Assembly (NCBI GenBank): GCA_964616425.1
Contig: CAZTQY010000003.1
Location: 47,402-111,401 of the forward strand
Source: an uncultured Candidatus Saccharibacteria bacterium
Lineage (GTDB): Bacteria > Patescibacteriota > Minisyncoccia > Phycocordibacterales > DATDWN01
Length of the DNA: 64,000 bases
Direction: 5' to 3'
Part shown: one piece after another, positions 1,502-58,391 of the stretch
How the letters are laid out: every line of letters begins with the position of its first letter
Numbering within the stretch: the first letter of the stretch is position 1
Position numbers and translations under genes: made by a program
The notes under the pieces: generated by a model
Told to the model about the DNA's origin: nothing
The model's input: the letters and a program-made list of their open reading frames with translations, nothing else
Databases searched by the model: none

Positions 1502-4273
1502 ATGAGTATAACAGTCACAAGGCATGATGGTAAAAAAGAACCTTTCAATGCCGATAAAATTAATCGTTCTATAGAAAGAGCATGTTATGGATTGTTCGAT
1601 CCAGTCTCAAAAGTGACTCAAATTGCGACTGAAACTCAACTCACTCTCTATGATGGAATCACAACTGATGAAATGGATCAGGCGACTATCAACGCTGCAG
1701 TTCAAAATATAAAAGATGACATCGAATACGATATTGTCGCAAAAAGACTCCTACTTAAAACTCTGTATAGACAAGTTATAAAGGATTTTCATCCTGGGGA
1801 CGAATCTGAAGTTTTTGCAGGTAAACATAGAAAGAGTTTTGTTGATTTTATAGAGACAGGAGTTGCGAATGGAAAACTTCACCCAGAAATGAAGGCAAAG
1901 TTTAACCTAGATGAACTGGCTAATACACTAAGATTGGAAAGAGATGAGTTGTTTCAATACGCTGGACTAGATGGACTCATAAACCGATATTTAATAAAAG
2001 ATATAAATCAAAAACCAATAGAAGTTCCTCAGTATTTCTTTATGCGAATCGCAATGGGTCTTTCATATAACGAAAGCAATCCAACTGAAATGGCAAAAAA
2101 GTTCTACAATAAAATGTCTAGATTGGAGTATGTTGCCGGCGGTTCTACAAACCTAGCTGCAGGAACTATTAACCCAGCGCTATCAAATTGTTATCTTTTG
2201 GAGATTCAAGATAACATGAACCACATTGCTAAATCTGTATCTGACGTTATGCTTCTATCAAAAGGCTCAGGTGGAATAGGTGCTTCTGTTACAAAACTTC
2301 GTGCTTCAGGTTCTCCACTTAGAAAATATGGAGGTACATCCACAGGACCAACACCATTTGCAAAAATAATCGATACTGCTATACGTGCTATTCAGAGAGG
2401 GGGAAAGAAAAAAGGTGCACTTTGTTTTTATATGGAAAATTGGCATATTGATTTTCCAGAATTTCTTGATTGGAAGAAGAATAATGGTGATGACTATATG
2501 AGAATGAGAACTGCAAACACTGCTGTTTATCTTTCTGACGAGTTTATGAAAAGAGTTTCTGCTGGTGATGATTGGTACATGTTTGATCCAGCTGAAACAG
2601 AAGATCTAAATGAACTTTACGGTGAAGCTTTTTCAAAGAGATATGCAGAATATGTTGAAATGGCAAACTCTGGAAAAATGAGAGTGTTTAAGAAAGCTCC
2701 GGCTACAGAACAATACAGACAAATTTTAACAGAGCTTCAGAGTTCATCTCATCCTTGGTTAGTCTGGAAAGATTCAATTAACCTTCGTGCTCTAAATAAC
2801 AATACAGGTACTATTCATATGAGTAACTTGTGTACAGAAATCTGTCTGCCACAAGATAAAGATAACGTTGCTGTTTGTAACCTCGCGTCTCTTAACCTTG
2901 CAGCTCATATAAAGAACAAAGAAGTAAATTGGGCTAGATTGGAAGAGTCTGTTCGTCTAGCCGTAAGACAACTCGATAATCTTATTGATATCAATGTTCT
3001 ACCTATCCCAGAGGCAGCAAAATCAGATAGTGAGAATCGAGCTGTAGGTTTGGGTGTGATGGGATTTTCAGATACGATAGAGCAACTTGGTATGTCATAT
3101 GATTCTCCTCATGCTTGGGATTTTGCTGACAGGATATTTGAATTTGTTTCTTATATGGCAATCGATGAGTCAGCTAATTTGGCACAAGAGCGGGGTAGTT
3201 ATGCAAACTTTCAAGGTTCTGAGTGGTCAAAGGGTAAAGTTCCAATCGACACACTTTCTACATTGGAAGCCGGCAGAGGCAAACCGCTAACAGTTTCTAA
3301 AGTTAGTAAACACAAGGGTCTGAACTGGGATGTGCTTCGTGCAAAGGTTTCAAAAGGGATAAGAAATGCAACACTAATGGCTGTAGCACCAAACGCGAAC
3401 ATTGGATTGGTTGCTGCAACAACTCCAGGAATAGATGCTAGGTTTGCTCAAGTATTTTCTAGAAATAAAATTTCTGGTAAATATCTTGATATAAATCACA
3501 ACCTCGTAAAGGATTTGATAAACCTTGGATTGTGGGATGATGTAAAAGAACAGATTATTGAAAACCAAGGAGATATTGCTGAAATCGCTCAAATACCTCA
3601 ACACATAAAAGACATATATAAAACTTCTTTCACAACATCACCATTTGCTTATATAGAAGTTGCTGCTCGTGCACAGAAATGGGTAGATCAGGCTTTATCT
3701 AGAAACATGTATCTTGAAACTAGAGATATAGATGAGACAATGAAGATATACAGTACTGCCTGGGAAAAGGGTCTCAAGTCAACATACTATCTCCACATGA
3801 AGCCTCGACATACAGCTGAACAGTCAACTACAAATGTGAACAAGGCAGCAAAGATAGGAAAAGTTGGATTCGGTGCGTTGAATTTCAGCAACTCAAATGC
3901 TTTTGCTTCTCCACTTCAAAAATCTTTTAGTGTTGTAAACCCAAGCCAGGTTGTTGCTAGTGAGCCTTCGATTAGTGAATCTGCTATAAAACAAGCAAAA
4001 GAGGATGCTATATCTAACATAACATTGGAAGAGGAAATATTAGTTTCTACTTCAAAGGCTGTTGAAGAAATTTTACCTAAAAATAATGTTGAGCCTAGTT
4101 TTGAGCCATTACAAAAGTCTATATTAGATCAGAATAAACCTGAGCTAGTTGCACAAATTCAAAAAAACGAATATAAATCACTTGAGCAGGTAAACAATAA
4201 TATTAAGAAATACAATATCATTGCTCCTGAAGATCCAGCTGATAGTGATAACATCTGTATTGCTTGTCAGTAA
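1502..4273 (+). CDS. nrdA: Ribonucleoside-diphosphate reductase alpha subunit (class I) with N-terminal ATP-cone and long C-terminal low-complexity linker ending in a Cys pair
   Basis: ATP-cone at the N-terminus, catalytic motifs (NLCTEI, PxAxxS-like), C-terminal CIACQ. Confidence 0.9.
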   Translation: MSITVTRHDGKKEPFNADKINRSIERACYGLFDPVSKVTQIATETQLTLYDGITTDEMDQATINAAVQNIKDDIEYDIVAKRLLLKTLYRQVIKDFHPGDESEVFAGKHRKSFVDFIETGVANGKLHPEMKAKFNLDELANTLRLERDELFQYAGLDGLINRYLIKDINQKPIEVPQYFFMRIAMGLSYNESNPTEMAKKFYNKMSRLEYVAGGSTNLAAGTINPALSNCYLLEIQDNMNHIAKSVSDVMLLSKGSGGIGASVTKLRASGSPLRKYGGTSTGPTPFAKIIDTAIRAIQRGGKKKGALCFYMENWHIDFPEFLDWKKNNGDDYMRMRTANTAVYLSDEFMKRVSAGDDWYMFDPAETEDLNELYGEAFSKRYAEYVEMANSGKMRVFKKAPATEQYRQILTELQSSSHPWLVWKDSINLRALNNNTGTIHMSNLCTEICLPQDKDNVAVCNLASLNLAAHIKNKEVNWARLEESVRLAVRQLDNLIDINVLPIPEAAKSDSENRAVGLGVMGFSDTIEQLGMSYDSPHAWDFADRIFEFVSYMAIDESANLAQERGSYANFQGSEWSKGKVPIDTLSTLEAGRGKPLTVSKVSKHKGLNWDVLRAKVSKGIRNATLMAVAPNANIGLVAATTPGIDARFAQVFSRNKISGKYLDINHNLVKDLINLGLWDDVKEQIIENQGDIAEIAQIPQHIKDIYKTSFTTSPFAYIEVAARAQKWVDQALSRNMYLETRDIDETMKIYSTAWEKGLKSTYYLHMKPRHTAEQSTTNVNKAAKIGKVGFGALNFSNSNAFASPLQKSFSVVNPSQVVASEPSISESAIKQAKEDAISNITLEEEILVSTSKAVEEILPKNNVEPSFEPLQKSILDQNKPELVAQIQKNEYKSLEQVNNNIKKYNIIAPEDPADSDNICIACQ

Positions 4274-4298
4274 CATTTAAAATTTAATATAAAATAAT

Positions 4299-5309
4299 AT
4301 GACACTAATTGGAAAACCATCACCAACGGATATGAATTTGCATCCTCTAAATTATAAGTGGGCATATGATTTGTATAACCAAGCTGTTCGAAACACTTGG
4401 TTCCCTCATGAAATAGCACTCAAAGAGGACTTGGAAGATTTTGAGAAAATGACTGAGGATGAGAGACACGCAATCAAGTTTCTTATGGCTTTTTTCAACC
4501 CTGCAGAGCTCATAGTTAACAGATCCATTGCTCTCGGTATATATCCATATTTGAAATCTCCAGAGTGTCACCTATATCTAGCAAAGCAAATGTGGGAAGA
4601 GGCGAACCACTGTGTGTCTTTTGAATATGTTCTAGAAACATTCCCGTTTGATAAAGAGTCTATATTTAACACTCACCTCGAAGTGGCTTCTATGACAGCA
4701 AAGGAGGCTTTCATAAACAGATATCTAACTCGAATGACTGAAGATAAGCTCGATATTGAAACAGTGGATGGTAAGAAAGATTTTATTAGAAACCTAGTTG
4801 CGACAAACATTGTGATGGAGGGTATATGGTTCTACTCAGGCTTTATGGTGGCTCTTTCTTTCCGACAGAGAAACCAACTCAGAAACTTTGGTTCTATGAT
4901 CAACTGGGTTTTGCGAGACGAAAGTTTGCACCTAAAGTTCGGTATTAACTTGGTTCACAATGTGTTGGAGGAAAATACAGAACTACTTACGGAAGAGTTT
5001 GCAGCAGAAATCAGAAACATAATCATCGAAGGAGTTGATCTAGAAGTTGCATACAACAAAGACTTGTTCCCGAACGGTATTTTGGGACTTAATGCTGACT
5101 ATGTAAACCAGTATGTTCAGTATGTGGCGGACAGAAGACTTCAGGAACTTGGAATGCCAAAATACTATAATGTGACTAATCCAGCAAAATGGATGAGTAC
5201 AGCAACAGATGTGTTTGAGTTGGTAAACTTTTTTGAATCACAAAACACAAGTTACGAGGTAGACTCTCACGCAGGGGAATCAAAAAAGAAAGATTCTGCT
5301 TCTGAGTAG
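4299..5309 (+). CDS. nrdB: Ribonucleotide reductase beta subunit (ferritin-like diiron)
   Basis: EEANHCVSFEYVLETF diiron ligand region, directly downstream of nrdA. Confidence 0.9.
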   Translation: MTLIGKPSPTDMNLHPLNYKWAYDLYNQAVRNTWFPHEIALKEDLEDFEKMTEDERHAIKFLMAFFNPAELIVNRSIALGIYPYLKSPECHLYLAKQMWEEANHCVSFEYVLETFPFDKESIFNTHLEVASMTAKEAFINRYLTRMTEDKLDIETVDGKKDFIRNLVATNIVMEGIWFYSGFMVALSFRQRNQLRNFGSMINWVLRDESLHLKFGINLVHNVLEENTELLTEEFAAEIRNIIIEGVDLEVAYNKDLFPNGILGLNADYVNQYVQYVADRRLQELGMPKYYNVTNPAKWMSTATDVFELVNFFESQNTSYEVDSHAGESKKKDSASE

Positions 5310-6071: not shown

Positions 6072-7112
6072 ATGGCATTTTTCAGTAAAACAAAAAAAGT
6101 TCGTGTTGCAATAAACGGTTTCGGTAGAATTGGCAGACAATTTCTGAAAGAGAGTTGGGATAATGAAAGTCTAGAAGTGGTTGCAGTTAACGATCTAGGA
6201 AGTGTCGATAATATGGCGTACCTTTTGAAATACGATACGGTTTATAAAACATGGAAGCATGATGTGAAAGTAGACGGTGGAAACCTTGTAATAGACGGTA
6301 GAACAGTAAAATTTGTTTCTGAAAAAGAGCCAACAAAACTTCCTTGGGGAGAGCTTGCAGTTGATGTTGTTGTTGAGTCTACAGGACTTTTCACTTCATA
6401 CGACAAAGCCTCTGTTCATTTAACTGCTGGTGCAAAGAAAGTAGTTATCTCAGCTCCTTCAAAAGGTGGAGACGGAAGTGTGAAAGGTGAAACTATACTC
6501 ATGGGTGTAAACGAGGAAAAGTTCGGTACATGTGATGTTACTTCAAATGCGTCATGTACAACAAACGCTGCTTCGCCACTTATTGCTATTTTGGATGAAA
6601 ACATTGGTATTGAAAAAGCAGTTCTGAACACTGTTCATGGATACACAGCGTCACAAGCACTAGTTGATGGTCCGTCTAAAAAAGATTTGAGAGAGGGAAG
6701 AGCAGCCGCACAGAACATCGTGCCTTCTTCTACAGGAGCAGCTATTGCGGTAACACAGGCATTCACGAAACTAGAAGGTTTGTTTGATGGTATTTCTATC
6801 AGAGTTCCTGTTCCAGCTGGTTCTATTGTGGATGTAACTTTTATTTCAAAGAAAAATACAACTGCAGAGGAAGTGAACAGTGTATTGCGAGCAGCTGCAG
6901 CAAGTGATAGATGGAAAAATATTTTCTCAGCTACAGATGAGGAACTAGTATCATCAGACATTCTCGGTAGTCATTATGGTTCTATCGCAGACCTCAAAAT
7001 GACTCGTGTTGTCGGAGGAAACTTGATAAAGGTTATGGCGTGGTATGACAATGAGGCGGGGTATACGAACATGCTGATTGACCACGTGATAAAAACTGGT
7101 AAAACAATATAA
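6072..7112 (+). CDS. gap: Glyceraldehyde-3-phosphate dehydrogenase
   Basis: NGFGRIGR Rossmann motif and the SCTTNA active-site motif. Confidence 0.95.
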   Translation: MAFFSKTKKVRVAINGFGRIGRQFLKESWDNESLEVVAVNDLGSVDNMAYLLKYDTVYKTWKHDVKVDGGNLVIDGRTVKFVSEKEPTKLPWGELAVDVVVESTGLFTSYDKASVHLTAGAKKVVISAPSKGGDGSVKGETILMGVNEEKFGTCDVTSNASCTTNAASPLIAILDENIGIEKAVLNTVHGYTASQALVDGPSKKDLREGRAAAQNIVPSSTGAAIAVTQAFTKLEGLFDGISIRVPVPAGSIVDVTFISKKNTTAEEVNSVLRAAAASDRWKNIFSATDEELVSSDILGSHYGSIADLKMTRVVGGNLIKVMAWYDNEAGYTNMLIDHVIKTGKTI

Positions 7113-7230
7113 ATTCCAAATTTGGCGAACTCCTCGTTCCCAAATTAAAAATATTCGTCACCTTAGCACTAACTAAGGCTCCTCATCTTTTTAATTTCTC
7201 ACGTCGGATTTCATCCAAATTGTGAAATTT
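7113..7230. mobile_element. MITE-like repeat, family alpha copy 1, with terminal inverted repeats and an internal conserved hairpin
   Basis: Starts immediately after the gap stop. TIRs ttccaaatttggcgaa / ttcatccaaattgtgaa. About 90% identical to 39165-39325. Confidence 0.45.
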
Positions 7231-7290
7231 TGATTTTGGAGTTGTTGAATACTTTATATCTATATACCACAGATTTAGTATAATTAAATT

Positions 7291-7737
7291 ATGCGAATCT
7301 ATATAAGTTCTGACCATGCGGGGTTTGAGATGAAAAGAAGTCTCATTGCTTTTCTTGTTGAACAGCAGTTTGAGGTGTACGACTGTGGACCAAAGCAATA
7401 TGATCATGAAGATGACTATCCAGATTATATTTCTATTGTAGCTTCTAGTGTTTCAAAAGATAGAGACTCAAAGGGAATAGTTTTAGGTTGGTCAGGTCAG
7501 GGTGAAGCTATGGTGGCAAACAGATTTCCAAACGTAAGGTGCGCACTTTTTTATGGTGGCAATAAACATATTTTGACTTTAGCTAGAGAGCATAATGATT
7601 CGAATATTCTATCTTTAGCTTCTCACTTTATAACTACCCAAGAGAGTCATCAGGCTGTATTGTTGTGGCTTAAAACACCCTTTTCTGCAGAACCTAGACA
7701 TATTAGAAGAATTAAGAAGATCGAACAATATGACTAA
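7291..7737 (+). CDS. rpiB: Ribose-5-phosphate isomerase B
   Basis: MRIYISSDHAGFE..CG motif set of the RpiB/LacAB family. TATAAT at 7278. Confidence 0.9.
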   Translation: MRIYISSDHAGFEMKRSLIAFLVEQQFEVYDCGPKQYDHEDDYPDYISIVASSVSKDRDSKGIVLGWSGQGEAMVANRFPNVRCALFYGGNKHILTLAREHNDSNILSLASHFITTQESHQAVLLWLKTPFSAEPRHIRRIKKIEQYD

Positions 7738-8402: not shown

Positions 8403-9305
8403 ATGGCAATGCCAAATTTAACAGACGACAAAATCCGTTTGCTTTCAGAAAAGGCAAAAGCAATACGCATTTCAATCATAGAGATGCTTGTTTCTGCCGG
8501 TTCTGGTCACTCTGCTGGCCCTTTGGGTATGGCTGATATTTTCACTGCACTTTATTTTTTTATTCTACGTCATAATCCAACTGATCCGTTTTGGGAAGGC
8601 CGAGATAGGCTTATACTTTCAAACGGTCACATAAACCCTGTCTTGTATGCAACGATGGCTCACTCAGGATACTTTCCAGTTTCTGAGCTTCTGACACTGA
8701 GAAAGTTTGGCTCAAGGCTTCAGGGTCATCCACATAGAGAGTTTCTTCCAATGTTGGAAAATAGTTCAGGACCACTAGGTTCTGGTTTGTCACAAGCGGT
8801 AGGTATGGCGATAGCAGATAGAATGGATAAAGGAAGAACTTCTGATAGATTTTTCTACTGTTTGCTTGGTGATGGAGAACTAGACGAGGGACAGAACTGG
8901 GAAGCAATAATGTTGGCCAATAAAGAAAGACTTGGAAATTTAATTGTTTTTGTTGATAGAAATAATATTCAGATAGATGGATATACAGAGGATGTTATGC
9001 CTCTTGATTCTGTATTACACAAGTTTGAGAGTTTTGGTTGGCATGCAGAAGAGATAGACGGACATAACTTTGCAGAAATCATCGCTGCTGTTGGGAGAGC
9101 GCAGGCAGTCTTTGATGGACCGAGCGTGATAGTCGCTAGAACTATTCCAGGAAAGGGAGTTTCGTTTATGGAGCGTGACTACAAATGGCATGGTAACCCT
9201 CCAGGAACAGAGTTGCCTGGCGAGCCGCCAAAGGATGAACAAGCAAAAATTGCGTTGCATGACCTCCGTACTCTAGGCGGCCAGATAACATCCGAACATG
9301 AATAA
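8403..9305 (+). CDS. Transketolase, N-terminal (TPP-binding) subunit of a split enzyme
   Basis: GSGHSAGPLGMADI and GDGELDEGQNWEA motifs. Confidence 0.9.
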   Translation: MAMPNLTDDKIRLLSEKAKAIRISIIEMLVSAGSGHSAGPLGMADIFTALYFFILRHNPTDPFWEGRDRLILSNGHINPVLYATMAHSGYFPVSELLTLRKFGSRLQGHPHREFLPMLENSSGPLGSGLSQAVGMAIADRMDKGRTSDRFFYCLLGDGELDEGQNWEAIMLANKERLGNLIVFVDRNNIQIDGYTEDVMPLDSVLHKFESFGWHAEEIDGHNFAEIIAAVGRAQAVFDGPSVIVARTIPGKGVSFMERDYKWHGNPPGTELPGEPPKDEQAKIALHDLRTLGGQITSEHE

Positions 9306-9337
9306 AACTTCCAAAACTGACAAATTTCTTTGTTCTC

Positions 9338-9393
9338 GATTTTACTTTCTCCACGCGCAGTACTAGATGTACAGCTTGGTCGAAAGTAAAATC
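9338..9393 (+). repeat. Hairpin family beta copy 1: 12-bp perfect stem around a conserved 29-nt core
   Basis: gattttactttc [tccacgcgcagtactagatgtacagcttggtc] gaaagtaaaatc. The same core, with a different complementary stem, is at 58277-58330. Confidence 0.45.
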
Positions 9394-9464
9394 TGCGAAC
9401 TTCGAACTTCACACAGTTTTGAAAGTTTTAAGTTTTCAATCCGAATTGTGTTAAAATAATTTAA

Positions 9465-16873: not shown

Positions 16874-17155
16874 ATGAAAAAAGAAATACATCCACAAAAC
16901 TATAGACCAGTACTATTTATCGACAACTCAAATGGCGCTGAATTTATAATATCTTCAACTGTTCCATCTACTGAAACAGCAAAAGCAAAGGCAGACAAGA
17001 AAGAGTACCCAGTTTACCGAGTTGAAATCTCAAGTGCATCACATCCTTTCTATACTGGAAACGAGAAGTCACTAGACACAGCAGGACGAGCAGAGAAGTT
17101 TAAGCAACGAGTTGCAAAAGCTACTGCTACTAAAGCTAAGAAATCAACAAAATAA
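16874..17155 (+). CDS. rpmE: Ribosomal protein L31
   Basis: MKKEIHPQNY..HPFYTG motifs. Confidence 0.9.
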   Translation: MKKEIHPQNYRPVLFIDNSNGAEFIISSTVPSTETAKAKADKKEYPVYRVEISSASHPFYTGNEKSLDTAGRAEKFKQRVAKATATKAKKSTK

Positions 17156-17157
17156 CC

Positions 17158-17194
17158 CCGCCTGCGTTGTTGCAGGTCGGGTTATTTTGTTCAA
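17158..17194 (+). terminator. rpmE terminator; first part of a repeated module also found at 56243-56325
   Basis: cccgcctgcgttgttgcaggtcggg followed by ttatttt. Confidence 0.5.
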
Positions 17195-17292
17195 TGTACT
17201 CCGTGTACACCTCACTCAAAAACCATCCTGCGCCTAGCACTCAGGGCTATTTTCTTGATTTCTTAAGTGACTAATTTGTTATAATTACTTTA

Positions 17293-18267
17293 ATGGATTT
17301 AGAAAAATTTATACAAAACCCAAAGACATCATATCTTGCACAAGAGTTTCAACGACTAGCAAAGCAAGAAGATGAAACTACACAAATGATTGCAAGTGAT
17401 CCATCACTTGCTGATTTGGCGCACAGTGATTTGGAAAATATAAAGTCACAGAAAGATGCTCTAATGAAACAGATGGAGGAAATAGTAGCTGAGGAAGAAA
17501 AAGAAGAAGAGTTCCCGAACGAGATTATTCTCGAGGTTCGAGCTGGCGCCGGTGGAGAGGAGGCTTCTATTTTTGCTGAGGACTTGGCTCATATGTATAC
17601 ACGATATGCTGAAAACCAAGGCTGGTCAGTGGCTCCTATCGATGAATCTCGAAGTGCAGTCGGTGGATACAAAGAAGCAGCCTTTGAGATACATGGCCGG
17701 GGTGTATATAAACAGCTACGTTTTGAAACAGGAGTACACAGAGTGCAGAGAATCCCAGCAACTGAGAAGATGGGACGTGTTCATACATCAACTGCAACAG
17801 TCGCAGTTCTACCACTCCGAAAGAAAACAACTATAGAAATAAAACCAAGTGATTTGGAAATAGAAACATCACGATCTGGCGGGGCAGGAGGACAAAACGT
17901 TAACAAGGTTGAAACAGCGGTAAGAATCATCCACAAACCAACAGGTATAGACGTTCGATCTACGTCGCAGCGAAGCCAGCTCAAAAACCGCGAAGCAGCG
18001 ATGAGTATTTTGACTGCAAAACTTCAAATGATGAAAGATGAGGAAGAGTCAGCAAAGTATTCTGCTGACAGAAAGTCTCAGGTTGGAACAGCAGATAGGT
18101 CAGAAAAGATTCGAACATACAACATTCTTCAGGATCGTATTACAGACCACCGTATAAAACAGTCTTGGCACAATATTGAAAAGATCCTGGCTGGGGGAAT
18201 AGAGCCAATAATAGAGTCAATGGAAAACTTTGATGGGAGTTCTGTTGTGGGTGGTGATGAGGAGTAA
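17293..18267 (+). CDS. prfA: Peptide chain release factor 1
   Basis: GGQ motif plus RIPATE (PxT-type), as in E. coli RF1 RVPATE. Confidence 0.9.
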
Positions 18268-19132: not shown

Positions 19133-19140
19133 TAATTAGG

Positions 19141-19262
19141 ACTCCCATAGATGGTGCATTTCGTTGTTGGAAAAGTAAATGTTCTCGTCACCTTACGTTA
19201 GAGTAAGGCTCCTCGCTCATTTACCTTTCCCCCTAGAACTGCATCCATCTACGTAAGTCCTA
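19141..19262. mobile_element. MITE-like palindromic element related to family alpha, between rpsB and tsf
   Basis: TIRs ggactcccatagatggtgca / tgcatccatctacgtaagtcc, and an inner tcgtcacctta..taaggctcctc core shared with 7113 and 39165. Confidence 0.4.
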
Positions 19263-36902: not shown

Positions 36903-39164
36903 ATGTACCTCAAGTCTATAGAACTAACAGGTTTCAAATCTTTTGCAAAAAAAGCAGAGCTTAACTTTACGTCTCGTGTTTCTGCTATCGTAGGTCCTAA
37001 CGGTTCTGGAAAGTCCAATATCGCAGAAGCTTTCCGTTTTGTGCTAGGTGAGCAGTCTATTAAAAGTTTGCGCGGTAAAAAAGGTGAAGATCTTATTTTC
37101 AATGGAGCAGGTGATTTGCCTCGAGGAAATAGAGCAAGTGTGAAAGTAACTTTTGATAATAGTTCAAAGTTTCTACCGTTAGACTATGAGTTGGTAACTA
37201 TTGAACGCATTGTGCACAGAGACTCAGTGAACGAATACATGATAAACGGATCCCAAGTTAGACTGCGAGACGTTGTTGAGCTTTTGTCGTCTGCTCATAT
37301 CGGAGCATCTGGTCATCATATTATTTCTCAGGGTGAGGCTGACAGAATACTAAATGCTAGTATAAAAGAACGAAAGGCAATGATAGAAGATGCTCTTGGT
37401 TTGAAACTATATCAATATAAAAAACAAGAAAGTGAAAGAAAGTTAGAAAAGACTCGAGAAAATATTGAGAAAGTAGAGTCGTTACGTCGAGAAATAATGC
37501 CTCATCTAAAGTTTTTGAAAAAGCAGGTGGAAAAGGTAGAAAAGGCGATACAGATGAAAGACGAGTTGCAGAAAGAGGCTTTAGAGTACTGTAAACGTGA
37601 AGATGAGTACATAAAGCGAACAGAAGAGAAGATCAAAACTTCAAAAGAACCTCTGATTCACAAAGAAAAAGAGTTGGATAAAGAGCTTGCCGAGGCAAAG
37701 TCTATTTTGGAAAATGCAAAAGATAAAGATGGTTTGTCAGAGGAACTTATTCAGTTGGAAAATGATTTGCACAAAGCTAGGGATGAAAAAGATGGTCTCT
37801 TTAGGGACTTTGGACGTATAGATGGAGAGTTGAACTCTTTGGTTAGGATGGTTAAAAAGCAACAGGAAGTGGCTAACTCGATGGAGCATAAAACAGTAAC
37901 TCTGGTTTCTGTCGAGGATCTTTCCAAAAAAATAGAAGATAGAGTTCAAAAAGCAAAAGAGACAAAAGACGTAGATGCGCTTTTATCTGCCTTGGACGAA
38001 GTTTATAATCTCGTTTCAGATTTTATTGACTACAACAAAGACAAAGTTGAAATGACTTTGATAGAAGATGTGCAGAGAGATATCGATGCTCTGCAAAAGT
38101 CTAAAAAGGAGTTAGAAACAAAACTAGAAGAAATAAAAAAACGTGAAGGGGATTTGTCTGAGTCATATAACAAACTAAAAACAGAAATAGAAAAGGAAAA
38201 GGACTCTAACAGAGATGCAGAAAAAGCAGTTTTTAGAATCATGGCAGAGTCACAAGAAGTACGCTCACAGATTCATAGTATACATTCTGATGAAGAAACT
38301 TTGAGAGTTGTAAAAGAAGATTTTAAAAGAGAACTTACAGAGCTTGGTATGCTTTTGGGTACACATGTATTACAGTTCCAAAATCTTGAATACGACTTTA
38401 GTGAGCCACGTCATGAACAAGACGAGCGAAGACGAAGAATAGAGAAAATTAAAATCCGTTTGGAAGATTCAGGTGTTGCGGGTGGGGCTGAGACACTAAA
38501 GGAATACACAGATGCAACTGAACGAGATGAGTTCCTGGCAAAAGAACTTTTGGATTTAGAAAACTCGGCAAACTCACTCACTGAACTTATAAAGGATTTG
38601 GATGTTCGACTTTCGACAGAGTTCAAAACTGGTTTGGATAAAATAAACCATCAGTTCAAAGAATATTTTGCTCTTATGTTTGGTGGAGGTGAAGCACATC
38701 TTTCTGTTTCCTTGCCACCAAAAAAGAAGAAGGACACTGACTTAATGATGGATGATGGAGAAGATACTTTCAGCGACGCTCCATCTATGACAGCTGAGGC
38801 CGAAGGCTCCGATGGTATCGACATCGAGGTTAATTTACCAAAGAAAAAAGTTAAGGGTCTCATGATGCTTTCCGGAGGAGAAAGGGCTCTGACATCTATT
38901 GCGCTTTTGTTTGCTATATCACAGGTTAACCCACCACCATTTATTATTCTTGATGAAACTGATGCCGCACTCGACGAAGCAAACTCAAAGAAATATGCAG
39001 ATATGATAGAAAATCTTTCAAAGTATTCTCAGCTTATTGTGATAACTCACAATAGAGAGACAATGTCTCGCGCAGGATTATTGTACGGAGTAACTATGGG
39101 AATGGGTGGGGGATCGAAACTGCTATCCGTCGCCTTCGAGGAAGCACTAGCCGTCGCAAAGTAA
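36903..39164 (+). CDS. smc: SMC-like chromosome segregation ATPase (short form)
   Basis: N-terminal Walker A GPNGSGKSN, long coiled coil, C-terminal LSGGE signature and Walker B ILDETDAALD. Confidence 0.8.
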   Translation: MYLKSIELTGFKSFAKKAELNFTSRVSAIVGPNGSGKSNIAEAFRFVLGEQSIKSLRGKKGEDLIFNGAGDLPRGNRASVKVTFDNSSKFLPLDYELVTIERIVHRDSVNEYMINGSQVRLRDVVELLSSAHIGASGHHIISQGEADRILNASIKERKAMIEDALGLKLYQYKKQESERKLEKTRENIEKVESLRREIMPHLKFLKKQVEKVEKAIQMKDELQKEALEYCKREDEYIKRTEEKIKTSKEPLIHKEKELDKELAEAKSILENAKDKDGLSEELIQLENDLHKARDEKDGLFRDFGRIDGELNSLVRMVKKQQEVANSMEHKTVTLVSVEDLSKKIEDRVQKAKETKDVDALLSALDEVYNLVSDFIDYNKDKVEMTLIEDVQRDIDALQKSKKELETKLEEIKKREGDLSESYNKLKTEIEKEKDSNRDAEKAVFRIMAESQEVRSQIHSIHSDEETLRVVKEDFKRELTELGMLLGTHVLQFQNLEYDFSEPRHEQDERRRRIEKIKIRLEDSGVAGGAETLKEYTDATERDEFLAKELLDLENSANSLTELIKDLDVRLSTEFKTGLDKINHQFKEYFALMFGGGEAHLSVSLPPKKKKDTDLMMDDGEDTFSDAPSMTAEAEGSDGIDIEVNLPKKKVKGLMMLSGGERALTSIALLFAISQVNPPPFIILDETDAALDEANSKKYADMIENLSKYSQLIVITHNRETMSRAGLLYGVTMGMGGGSKLLSVAFEEALAVAK

Positions 39165-39325
39165 ACTTCCAAATTTGGCGAATACCACAAGAGTACTTCT
39201 TGTTTTATAAACAAAACAAAGTCGCTCCTCGTTCCCAAATTAAAAATATTCGTCACCTTACAGGTGTAAGGCTCCTCATCTTTTTAATTTCTCACGTCGG
39301 ATTTCATTCAAATTATGAAAGTTTG
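39165..39325. mobile_element. MITE-like repeat, family alpha copy 2 (with about a 40-bp internal insertion relative to copy 1)
   Basis: Starts directly after the smc stop. Same TIRs and the same tcgtcacctta..taaggctcctcatctttttaatttctcacgtcggatttcat core as 7113-7230. Confidence 0.45.
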
Positions 39326-39333
39326 GTGTACTA

Positions 39334-39363
39334 TTGACTATATAGTCAAGATAGTGGTATAAT
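39334..39363 (+). promoter_or_regulatory. Promoter TTGACT-18-TATAAT for cassette H
   Basis: ttgactatatagtcaagatagtggtataat. Confidence 0.5.
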
Positions 39364-39395
39364 ATGTAAGTATAGTTCGTTAACAATTACTTGTG

Positions 39396-39446
39396 AAGTG
39401 GTTAGCCAAAAGCCCCTGAAAATCAAGGGTTTTTGGCTAACCACTT
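39396..39446 (+). promoter_or_regulatory. Leader hairpin with 20-bp perfect stem between promoter and cassette H gene; candidate attenuator or regulatory structure
   Basis: aagtggttagccaaaagccc ctgaaaatcaa gggtttttggctaaccactt. Confidence 0.4.
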
Positions 39447-39510
39447 CTGGAAAGCCCCTTAACTCGCGGGTAGCGAGAAACTTCTCGGCAATTAGCCGAA
39501 AAGGAGAAGT

Positions 39511-40044
39511 ATGATCAAGAACAGCGAACTCAACTTGGGTCAGATCGAGGCGATCGTCAACAAGCTTGGTGGGATGAGTGGTGTTGACCGTTTCCTCGCT
39601 GGTGAGTTGGTTGTCGTCCCGGCATATTCTGCCGTTGTGGACTACAGCCAGTCACTTGTTGAGATGGTCTCTGCAGGGAAGTACGACTGGGTGAGCGAGG
39701 GTATCACTGAGAAGAACTTCCCTAAAACCATGTCGGGCAAAGTTCGGGTCAATTTCGAACTTGTCCACTTCAATCGGAACATCACGTCGGACATCGCAGT
39801 GATGGGGCTCGGTGGGATGGGATTACGCCCTGCGACCATCTGGGAACTTCTAGCATTCGGGGCTAAGTACCCCGAACTTCAGAGAGAGTTTCCTGTCGTC
39901 GCCCTAGGATCGGTCGCCAAGATTGAGGATTCTCGTCATGTTGTCGGTTTCTTCATGATTGTTTCCAAGCGGAGTGTTGATCACCTCTGCACGTGGGGTC
40001 ATGATTGGACACGTAACGTGCGTTTCCTCGCCGTTCGCAAGTAA
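39511..40044 (+). CDS. High-GC cassette H gene 1: hypothetical 177-aa protein
   Basis: SD aaggag, GC about 55%, followed by a terminator. Confidence 0.5.
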   Translation: MIKNSELNLGQIEAIVNKLGGMSGVDRFLAGELVVVPAYSAVVDYSQSLVEMVSAGKYDWVSEGITEKNFPKTMSGKVRVNFELVHFNRNITSDIAVMGLGGMGLRPATIWELLAFGAKYPELQREFPVVALGSVAKIEDSRHVVGFFMIVSKRSVDHLCTWGHDWTRNVRFLAVRK

Positions 40045-40135: not shown

Positions 40136-40280
40136 TATAAATTAAAGTAGTGTTATTCCAAGACTCTCGACAATCGAGGTCTATAGTGATTGCTTCGAAC
40201 TTCACTCAGTTTATGAAAGTTTGAGAGGAATAATTTGACTTTTGTAAAAATTGTGTTAGATTCTTTGGTGGAGAAATTAT

Positions 40281-55866: not shown

Positions 55867-56220
55867 ATGGAAGGAAATAATCAAAATCGATGTGATGTTT
55901 GTGGATCAGGATATGGTCATTGTGGTAAGTGTGGAAACATGTGCGGTTTCGGCGGACGACATATGCTTCGATGGATTTTGGGAATCATTATTATTACTTG
56001 GATTTTTTGTATTGGTATGAAAGTTGGTGAACTAAAAGCGAGTTTGGATCAGTCTTACTTTGGATATGGCCATTCTCGAGTTATGCCAATGATGTATGGT
56101 GCACAAGGCGCTACATGGTCAGGTGATCAAGGAAATGTAATGTTCACTACATCTTCAGCTCCAGCGAGTATGATGACTGGTGTGAAGAGTGGGACTATAC
56201 AAGTTATAAAATCTAACTAG
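55867..56220 (+). CDS. Hypothetical membrane protein with Cys-rich N-terminus
   Basis: CDVCGSGYGHCGKCGNMCGFGG followed by a TM helix. Confidence 0.45.
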   Translation: MEGNNQNRCDVCGSGYGHCGKCGNMCGFGGRHMLRWILGIIIITWIFCIGMKVGELKASLDQSYFGYGHSRVMPMMYGAQGATWSGDQGNVMFTTSSAPASMMTGVKSGTIQVIKSN

Positions 56221-56361
56221 GAAAACAAATAAAATGGCATCATCTGCGGTGTTGCAGTTCAAATTTTTTCGTTCACCATACGCAAAGTATGGCTCACTCT
56301 AAAATTTTCCTGCGCCTAGCATCTGAAACCATTTAATTAGTTTTTAAAAAACAAATAAAAT

Positions 56362-57661: not shown

Positions 57662-58241
57662 AATGAGTAACGAAAAATATTCAACATATAGAGACCGTAT
57701 ACTTTCTTTTTATCGAAAGAACCGACGTATGCCTGGGTATAAAGAGATAATGACTCTGGTTGGTTTCAAATCAAAAAATGCAGTCTATAAACTTATCAAC
57801 AAACTAGTTGATGATGGTATTGTAGACAAAGACTCTGAAGGGCATTTAACTCCTATGAAAATTTTTGGCGAAGTTCCACTGCTTGGACTTGTTGAAGCCG
57901 GAATACCAACAACTGTGGACCAAGGTACTGACACACTGAGTTTGGAGGAATATCTGATAGGTGGTAAAAAAAGCTCCGTTTACTTGCTCGAGGTAAAAGG
58001 AGACTCCATGATTGACGAAGGAATACACGAAGGTGACTTGGTTTTGGTTGAGCGTCGTGGGGATCCAAAAGATGGAGATATAGTTATCGCTGAAGTAGAT
58101 GGTGGTTGGACAATGAAATATTTTAAAAAGAAAGGAAGTATCGTGTACCTCAAAGCCGCTAACAAAAACTATTCACCAATATATCCTCAGTATGATTTGA
58201 AAGTGGCAGCTATAGTAAAGGGTGTTATTCGTAAGTACTAA
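57654..58241 (+). CDS. lexA: LexA repressor (S24 peptidase)
   Basis: N-terminal winged HTH, GDSM catalytic Ser, and a downstream Lys. Confidence 0.9.
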   Translation: MPKMSNEKYSTYRDRILSFYRKNRRMPGYKEIMTLVGFKSKNAVYKLINKLVDDGIVDKDSEGHLTPMKIFGEVPLLGLVEAGIPTTVDQGTDTLSLEEYLIGGKKSSVYLLEVKGDSMIDEGIHEGDLVLVERRGDPKDGDIVIAEVDGGWTMKYFKKKGSIVYLKAANKNYSPIYPQYDLKVAAIVKGVIRKY

Positions 58242-58276
58242 ATTTCTGGTCTTTTTGCCCGATTTCTACGTTGCTA

Positions 58277-58330
58277 GTTTTGTTTGTTTCCGCAGAGTAC
58301 TAAATGTACACTTTGGTCACAAACAAAACG
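58277..58330 (+). repeat. Hairpin family beta copy 2
   Basis: gttttgtttgtttc [cgcagagtactaaatgtacactttggtca] caaacaaaac. Core about 80% identical to 9350-9381, stems unrelated but complementary. Confidence 0.4.
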
Positions 58331-58391
58331 TCGCGCCTTGAACTCAAACAAAAATCCTCAGAAATTACAATCATGAATATTTTTAATTTAT

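Follow-up and report, generated by a model that had tools for sequence, protein, structure and literature searches.

A MITE/REP-like family of palindromic elements with a conserved hairpin apex in Patescibacteria

ERIC/IRU elements reportedly insert at TA dinucleotides with duplication of the target, are transcribed as part of intergenic regions and form long RNA hairpins, and their orientation is said to matter, a description that goes back to De Gregorio and colleagues in 2005. We know of no cognate transposase for these elements. The Correia elements of Neisseria (CREE or NEMIS) and the RUP elements of Streptococcus pneumoniae have conserved terminal inverted repeats (TIRs), occur in either orientation and possess no invariant apical motif; RUP matches IS630-Spn1. 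As regards RNA structure, a Kt-7-type kink-turn is composed of a C stem, a 3-nt bulge, tandem G·A pairs and an NC helix. The genomes of CPR/Patescibacteria are tiny and streamlined and, to our knowledge, almost no mobile or regulatory non-coding DNA has been described in them; our search of the literature on CPR/Patescibacteria found none. The ERIC/IRU repeats of Enterobacteria and Yersinia are palindromic, MITE-like and 127 bp long (reviewed in PMC3184786). REPs are located downstream of open reading frames (ORFs), in unidirectional or convergent spacers, where fewer than 20 bp separate them from the upstream stop codon, which the repeat end itself sometimes supplies (PMC3733652).

Here we describe a new MITE/REP-like family with a conserved apex. 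A covariance model was built from an alignment of 88 copies and run without filters over the window, that is, the whole 64-kb stretch of DNA under analysis. It detected seven copies of the element, all in the same orientation (+). Three of these had been recognised in a first-pass annotation and are indeed present, whereas four diverged ones had been overlooked. Element ends were located by alignment-anchored analysis. The seven copies are:

7112–7229, + strand: copy 1, subfamily A, with its core at 7155–7184, directly behind the gap stop codon TAA (7110–7112); 128.7 bits.
9305–9428, + strand: diverged copy with type-II apex, behind the tktN stop TAA (9303–9305), flanked by TA at 9303–9304 and TA at 9429–9430, with an A after the right-hand TA; 61.3 bits.
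About 17149–17253, + strand: short diverged copy overlapping the rpmE (L31) stop TAA (17153–17155), TA flanks at 17153–17154 and 17248–17249; 37.1 bits.
19139–19260, + strand: copy 3, subfamily C, in the rpsB-tsf spacer, core at 19185–19214; 108.6 bits.
39165–39322, + strand: copy 2, subfamily A, behind the smc stop TAA (39162–39164), core at 39250–39277; 83 bits.
56221–56346, + strand: diverged copy behind the stop TAG (56218–56220) of the ORF at 55867–56220; 61.7 bits.
58241–58365, + strand: diverged copy with subfamily-B-like stems and type-II apex, behind the stop TAA (58239–58241) of an S24-peptidase-like ORF, flanked by TA at 58239–58240 and TA at 58366–58367; 47.2 bits.

The upstream genes are gap, tktN, rpmE, rpsB, smc and two others; gap encodes GAPDH and smc an SMC-type ATPase (both confirmed by Pfam), and the identities of rpsB and tsf come from homologue comparison. 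All copies lie behind + strand genes, the distance from stop codon to element start being at most 6 nt in six of the seven and the rpmE copy being the one that overlaps the stop of its gene, and at all seven junctions the spacer is mostly taken up by the element. Lengths range from 105 to 158 bp, with a typical size of about 115–135 bp (~120 bases). Copies 1 and 2, said earlier to be about 90% identical and to begin right behind the gap and smc stops, do so and share 108 of 118 positions (91.5%) once the insert in copy 2 is removed; this insert, estimated at around 40 bp, measures 42 nt (39183–39224). Copy 3 differs from both in its stems and has the same architecture. The internal core common to the three copies, with differing loops, was likewise recovered: TCGTCACCTTA-N6-8-TAAGGCTCCTC has three exact occurrences in the window (7155–7184, 19185–19214 and 39250–39277, all + strand), with no match in 100 shuffles and none expected by chance. 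A weak match to the model at 40146–40227 (- strand; 20.4 bits, E 0.027) may be a degraded copy or due to chance.

In the 88-sequence alignment the element is a single long imperfect hairpin. Standard pairs occupy 96.9% of the cells, as compared with 83.5% in shuffles and 35–51% when partners are slid, and 19 of the 27 pairs have compensatory changes on both sides. The outer helices are 91–99% paired and the whole element is an imperfect palindrome, which accounts for the terminal inverted repeats of the first-pass annotation; these arms are, however, co-varying stems specific to each subfamily, and it is the centre that is conserved instead. Indeed, the arms differ strongly among subfamilies A, B and C, and the apex of about 30 bases is nearly invariant. 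Read on the purine-rich strand, the apex is 5'-C GA G GA G[6-7 bp stem-loop]U GA C GA G-3', an architecture of two tandem G·A loops and a 6–7 bp hairpin. In the best-supported register, predicted from the alignment, it would form two symmetric 2x2 tandem G·A loops with an invariant G-C pair between them; columns 55–86 co-vary (CG 53, UA 10, UG 6) and columns 58–83 are G-C in 88/88 sequences. Two variants (L035 and L080) have a single GA/GA loop between perfect Watson-Crick helices. The GA dinucleotides beside the apical stem persist while the stem itself co-varies in copies beyond the search pattern (GACGUAC/GUACGUU, GGUGUAC/GUACAUU and GCCAUAC/GUAUGGU, the last representing a compensatory U-A to A-U change in the window copy at 56221–56346). 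A second apex type, found in the window copies at 9305 and 58241 and in L065, resembles the first with its two strands exchanged. On the sense strand, CGTC precedes the 6–7 bp apical hairpin in all exact-core copies and in several variants, with a stem length and tail that misfit the published CGTC families. Brief runs of A and of U border the hairpin (AAAAC...GUUUU), and only a short terminal consensus, RRACTYY, was judged by eye to be common to the family, the arms otherwise differing between subfamilies.

Several described structures were considered and rejected. The hammerhead-like GAUGAG...CGAA of copy 1 is not conserved in the family and has no Rfam match. An integron attC site lacks support from R''/R' boxes, none of which were seen on inspection, and the neighbours are housekeeping genes. 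Mimicry of 23S rRNA helix 7 was discarded after the core proved absent from the 5' 900 nt of the 23S rRNA in L010 and L035. Searching Rfam 15 at gathering score gave a tRNA as the sole match in the window, and around copy 1 nothing was found at E<=10.

A search of a species-representative genome collection confirmed that the family extends far beyond the window: the exact 22-nt core occurs 104 times in 102 stretches from at least 36 assemblies, with up to seven copies per assembly, and is thus identical in at least 36 species. Further copies with variant cores were detected by covariance-model and HMM searches, bringing the number in the collected loci to more than 120. Carriers of the exact core are Patescibacteria-type metagenome-assembled genomes (MAGs) labelled Zambryskibacteria, Paceibacterota, Minisyncoccia, Parcubacteria or 'Saccharibacteria', and within the CPR the family is restricted to Parcubacteria/Paceibacteria. 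Carriage by phages was rejected, as viral contigs gave no core matches. Copy density is 7 per 64 kb in the window and 3 per 72 kb in the DNA of its relatives. Two loci named otherwise, L004 (CAYRVJ010000104.1, 'Alphaproteobacteria') and L064 (JBEBJM010000007.1, 'Nitrospira sp.'), bear subfamily-A copies nearly identical to those of the window and are probably mis-binned CPR contigs; the search for RpsB homologues also returned one sequence named Nitrospira.

The two strands of the element do not fold equally well. The purine-rich strand, complement of the search pattern, is more stable in 106 of 107 copies (mean -48.7 vs -33.4 kcal/mol) and in all seven window copies; for copy 1 this is the - strand (-41.2 vs -25.1 kcal/mol). 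The sense-strand hairpins of the window copies are still stable, at -25 to -44 kcal/mol. In consensus pairs, 256 G-U wobbles are present on the purine-rich strand vs 25 on the other, or 168 vs 24 outside the ascertained core. Since the wobble positions differ between subfamilies, this asymmetry is not a single founder effect, and a mutational bias was rejected as its source because the asymmetry runs counter to the G>C skew that the + strand shows locally. It points to selection on the purine-rich strand in its single-stranded state. The mRNA of the upstream gene contains the other, less stable strand in about 80% of copies. Promoter-like sites (>=10 matches) are directed into the structured strand at 3 of 105 copies, as compared with 22 of 105 at which they face away, and on account of the rarity of the former a stand-alone antisense small RNA gene was dismissed.

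Placement relative to genes is equally uneven. One and the same element end is found 0–9 nt behind the stop codon of the pattern-strand gene in about 80 of 107 cases. The adjoining stops are TAA (44) or TAG (27) and never TGA, which makes up 8% of other stops (P=0.003). Convergent spacers contain 22 copies and divergent spacers 2, and compact junctions such as TAAaATG become 150-nt spacers when the element is present. Judged by eye from translations, the upstream genes are mostly highly expressed housekeeping genes, among them fusA, tuf, nusG, rpoD, efp, groEL, several ribosomal-protein genes, gyrA/B, recA and glycolytic genes. A canonical perfect-stem terminator is found within about 90 nt downstream of 24 of 103 copies, vs 0 in control stretches, which places the element in the 3'UTR, after the stop codon and ahead of a terminator that is distinct from it. 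Moreover, its base is AU-rich with only about 4 U, unlike the GC-rich hairpin and U run of an intrinsic terminator. Hence, of the two roles initially envisaged, a target preference or a function as terminator, the former is retained, a TA target explaining the stop-codon sites, and the latter is not.

At some loci, coding sequence enters the element. In L050 (2098–2607) a RuvC-like ORF runs about 20 nt into it and receives from it the last codons and the stop; ORFs also end a few nt within the element in L036, L087, L008 and L009. The right flanks of copies that follow nusG (L059, L095, L097 and L012) contain a conserved hairpin, tcccgcgcttctcggga, about 25 nt before an ATGGC start. This hairpin presumably forms the leader of whichever gene follows nusG, which may be rplK. 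The notion that hairpin and promoter tail travel as one mobile cassette was abandoned, as the tails of different copies are mostly native terminators and promoters that do not resemble one another, and the rpsB copy consists of the hairpin only.

Orthologous loci in close relatives, reached via homologues of RpsB and RpiB (the window RpiB being without an exact record), are empty or differently occupied. Between the window and L103–L112, L077, L023, L082 and L091, the variable junctions are gap-rpiB, tktN-tktC, rpsB-tsf, rpmE-prfA and smc. The rpsB-tsf spacer measures 37–48 nt in relatives with 87–92% RpsB identity, and the element is present in the window, where gtaTAAtaatTA/GGACT...AGTCC/TAtctac aligns with the empty site gtaTAAttatTAtacta (L104, L105, L106) as a precise 122-bp insertion, with TA duplicated at 19137–19138 and 19261–19262. 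At gap-rpiB, the window and L112 share a copy and L111 has a subfamily-B copy in the same place; L107 and L108 have a 55-nt promoter spacer, and L109 and L110 are empty (TAAaaATG). At tktN-tktC, the type-II copy of the window is replaced in L107 by one of subfamily A, which shares 93% identity with window copy 1, and the site is empty in L109, L110 and L111 (caaTAAtATG or caaTAAaATG). The rpmE-prfA junction has a plain terminator in L106 and an unrelated palindrome in L105. Among smc orthologues, L077 and L023 are without the element and L065 contains a diverged subfamily-B-like copy. Occupancy and subfamily thus vary among relatives with 84–92% protein identity. The initial proposal of a MITE-like mobile family, which would have been undermined had only the first copies existed and relatives carried them at the same loci, is supported on each of these points: copies are far more numerous, their sites vary and a duplicated target is visible.

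Statistics of the flanks bear on this duplication. Clean TA..TA flanks surround four of the seven window copies, the right-hand TA being missing in copies 1 and 2. Under a strict test, TA..TA around a terminal repeat matching at least 10 of 12 positions, 42 of 105 copies qualify. Where the left TA belongs to the stop codon, TAA or TAG stands at the right flank in 12 of 15 cases vs 47% in the background, which is what duplication of the stop codon's TA predicts. From one clean empty-site comparison and these flank statistics, a TA target-site duplication is seen in the aligned sequences. With TA as target and a purine as first base of the element, TAA and TAG stops are regenerated and TGA is never used.

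Between copy 1 and its orthologue in L112, identity is 95.8%, as compared with 67% for the adjacent tail and 37% for the fourfold sites of rpiB; copies in other genomes are 93–96% identical to copy 1, whereas rpiB fourfold sites give 26–37%. Near-identical copies also occur at different loci in different genomes. This conservation of copy 1 indicates recent spread or conversion, or else very strong constraint. The Gap protein is 97.6% identical to its L112 orthologue and the adjacent RpiB 84% (window 6072–7737 vs L112 2796–4447), with identity at gap fourfold sites reaching 64%. The break in similarity falls at the element, which suggests a possible recombination boundary at this position. No transposase or autonomous partner with matching ends was found in the collected loci, the sole long-range match being a spurious one inside lepA.

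A minority of copies have the opposite orientation. Eighteen are inverted relative to both neighbours and about 15% lie inverted before start codons, with the same element end 2–25 nt upstream of the ATG. The genes behind them include tuf (5 genomes), rpsN (4), rplJ (2), dnaK (2), typA (2), dnaJ, rpmA and others. In the rpsN and tuf sets, a conserved TTGACT-17-TAnnAT promoter is located further upstream, and the purine-rich hairpin is thus expected to be transcribed within the leader. Orthologous leader copies of rpsN and tuf differ by compensatory changes, and in rpsN-type cases the 3' foot of the hairpin (GGAAG, GGAGG or GGGAG) is 8–12 nt from the ATG. The idea that orientation is set purely by replication was rejected, because at the 18 inverted copies the genes and the GC skew of the loci are also inverted. 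In L010, an L10-leader hairpin lies upstream and the element between it and rplJ. The region 4296–4493 (- strand) of this locus matches Rfam L10_leader at gathering score (44.4 bits), the match coming from the genuine upstream L10-binding hairpin, and the element stands at the position that the model assigns to the attenuator hairpin.

Other short sequences accompany the family. The 42-nt sequence CCACAAGRGYACTTCTTGT...AAAGTCG, present in copy 2 (39183–39224), is also found in L081, L029, L091, L111 (7592) and L021 (about 4002, - strand). Its strand is constant, but the arm in which it is nested, left or right, varies among copies; in L021 it is directly behind the CCA end of a tRNA gene and itself ends in GCACCA. 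It may represent a second, tiny mobile insert. Just behind the smc copy there is a near-consensus promoter (TTGACT 39334–39339, 18-nt spacer, TATAAT 39358–39363), followed in the region 39334–39510 by a hairpin-rich leader of about 150 nt (e.g. gtggttagccaaaa...ttttggctaaccac) and by an ORF at 39511–40044, which has no Pfam match and whose leader has no Rfam match at gathering score. Many genes (rpiB, prfA and tsf; 7279–7293, 17280–17298; L104–L112) have a TATAAT-like box 6–9 nt before the ATG and no Shine-Dalgarno sequence, a pattern that suggests that leaderless mRNAs may be common in the source organism; the ORF at 39511 instead has AAGGAG. Two unrelated CCCGTAGT... hairpins fill the rpsB-tsf spacer of L087 (170–385), and the unrelated palindrome in the rpmE-prfA spacer of L105 (2330–2468) is GGTCTCTTTTTCTTATAATATTTTGGAG. 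Tandem partial right-arm fragments (ttaattctcaacgtcggatttcactcaaatttgaaatt repeated) behind a full copy in L035 (about 1192–1400) and L060 (about 3860–3910) look like remnants of nested or deleted elements.

We regard it as fairly probable that the element is a non-autonomous mobile palindromic family, MITE-like with a REP-like genomic distribution, moved by an enzyme acting in trans and then sorted by selection. Insertion takes place at a TA, which is duplicated; the purine at the element's first base recreates TAA or TAG, and the original third base of the stop follows the right-hand TA. The simplest candidate for the enzyme, given the TA duplication and the RRACTYY ends, would be a DDE transposase of the IS630/Tc1-mariner type. 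Selection would then decide where inserted copies persist. Most would persist downstream of the stop codons of housekeeping genes and ahead of their terminators, oriented in such a way that the 3'UTR contains the pyrimidine-rich, Shine-Dalgarno-free and weaker-folding strand, which would be harmless there. The purine-rich strand, with its Shine-Dalgarno-like motifs and very stable hairpin, would be acceptable, and might even be of use, only immediately ahead of start codons; the inverted minority (tuf, rpsN, rplJ, dnaK, typA) would thereby acquire a stable purine-rich leader with its 3' foot at Shine-Dalgarno distance. Some factor probably reads the near-invariant hairpin tip, and the apex may be a docking site of the mobilising enzyme or of a host RNA-binding factor that would recognise the single-stranded purine-rich strand. 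Several points count against this explanation. The collected loci yielded no transposase or autonomous partner, copies 1 and 2 lack the right-hand TA, and the duplication is read from a single clean empty-site comparison together with statistics. A MITE mobilised by a DDE enzyme would have conserved termini, whereas here the arms vary and the centre is conserved; cutting and pasting of double-stranded DNA predicts neither strand-specific folding nor an orientation bias of ~80:20; and in most copies the better-folding strand is complementary to the mRNA, with promoters into it being rare.

A conserved apex with variable, co-varying stems and strand-specific folding would both be expected of a REPIN/REP-like single-stranded DNA element, whose apical tagged hairpin would be read by an HUH enzyme (Y1, RAYT or IS200/IS605-type) inserting it beside TA(A/G), the right-hand TA then being part of the element rather than a duplication. 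About 80% of copies are oriented in keeping with the direction of the genes and with the GC skew, and the CGTC that stands unpaired on the sense strand, at the 5' foot of the apical hairpin, recalls the CGTC-tagged REPs. Such a route is nevertheless doubtful: the best-folding strand is the G-poor, leading-strand template, the opposite of the IS608 rule, 18 copies run fully against both skew and genes, TA is symmetric on both flanks with an empty-site alignment that reads as duplication, and no RAYT was seen in the collected loci. Still in its favour is the REP-type distribution, in which spacers are unidirectional or convergent, the upstream stop is less than 20 bp away and the tag supplies the stop (PMC3733652).

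The element might instead be defined by its apex, in that a putative CPR-specific protein would read the double-G·A tip as single-stranded DNA or RNA and a mobile module would spread the site of this protein, seeding a post-transcriptional regulon; this is a speculative proposal that we hold to be rather unlikely. If it were true, the regulon would span the leaders of tuf, rpsN, rplJ and dnaK and the trailers of fusA, nusG, rpoD and efp. More improbable is that the element is mainly a host cis-regulatory RNA, a protein-binding UTR hairpin of a translation and chaperone regulon whose dispersal is ancient and whose mobility is incidental or extinct. A core of 22 nt identical across at least 36 species, covariation that supports the structure, transcribed-leader copies that keep orthologous positions before rpsN (4 genomes) and tuf (5 genomes) while differing by compensatory changes, the enrichment of fusA, tuf, nusG, rpoD, efp, groEL and ribosomal-protein genes among the neighbours and the conservation of copy 1, far above that of its non-coding flanks, all speak for such an RNA. 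However, about 80% of copies place the weaker complementary strand in the mRNA, relatives with 84–92% protein identity differ in presence and exchange subfamilies at one junction, near-identical copies occupy different loci across genomes, a TA duplication is seen and copy density differs strongly between the window and its relatives (7 per 64 kb vs 3 per 72 kb). That the hairpins are intrinsic terminators or stabilisers of mRNA 3' ends, evolved in place at each gene end, we consider very improbable, even though they stand directly behind stops in sense orientation between short A and U runs (AAAAC...GUUUU) and have stable sense strands (-25 to -44 kcal/mol): a separate canonical GC-rich terminator follows 24 of 103 copies, the basal stem is rich in AU and has only about 4 U, 5' leaders contain the element as well, and homology across loci and genomes together with precise insertion exclude an independent origin.

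One repeat family fills many spacers of housekeeping genes in dozens of species, with an identical 22-nt core. It may serve as a marker of recent gene flow among CPR lineages and as a natural experiment on TA sites of stop codons as safe harbours, and it flags probable mis-binned contigs in MAGs. The invariant apex is a candidate handle for finding a CPR nucleic-acid-binding protein or transposase.

No known family accounts for a conserved apex with variable arms, for selection on the folding of a strand that is absent from the mRNA at most sites, or for the same element end being found at either a stop or a start codon. The core of the purine-rich strand can be written as a Kt-7-type kink-turn (GGAGCC...GGU-GAC-GA-A, with C stem, 3-nt bulge and tandem G·A), but this candidate was rejected, since the covariation of columns 55–86 gives two symmetric 2x2 G·A loops with a G-C pair between them and some variants have one GA/GA loop. 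With REP, BIME and REPIN sequences the family has in common its genomic distribution and the formation of larger hairpins of about 100 nt; a CGTC also stands beside its apical hairpin, which, as in REPs, may be recognised as a structure. REP units, however, are 20–40 nt long, GC-rich and devoid of target duplication, whereas the present element is one 120-nt unit with TA flanks. Like Correia and RUP elements, it is short, non-autonomous and bounded by inverted repeats, duplicates TA, is abundant beside genes and is co-transcribed into hairpin RNA; they are defined by conserved TIRs and found in either orientation, whereas here an invariant apical motif is present. The resemblance to ERIC/IRU comprises an imperfect palindrome of ~120–130 bp, TA duplication, location in transcribed spacers near gene ends, a long RNA hairpin and the importance of orientation. 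The two families nonetheless have no sequence relationship and belong to different host phyla, and in the CPR family the centre rather than the arms is conserved, folding is strongly strand-biased, and a defined subset of copies forms the 5' leaders of translation genes.
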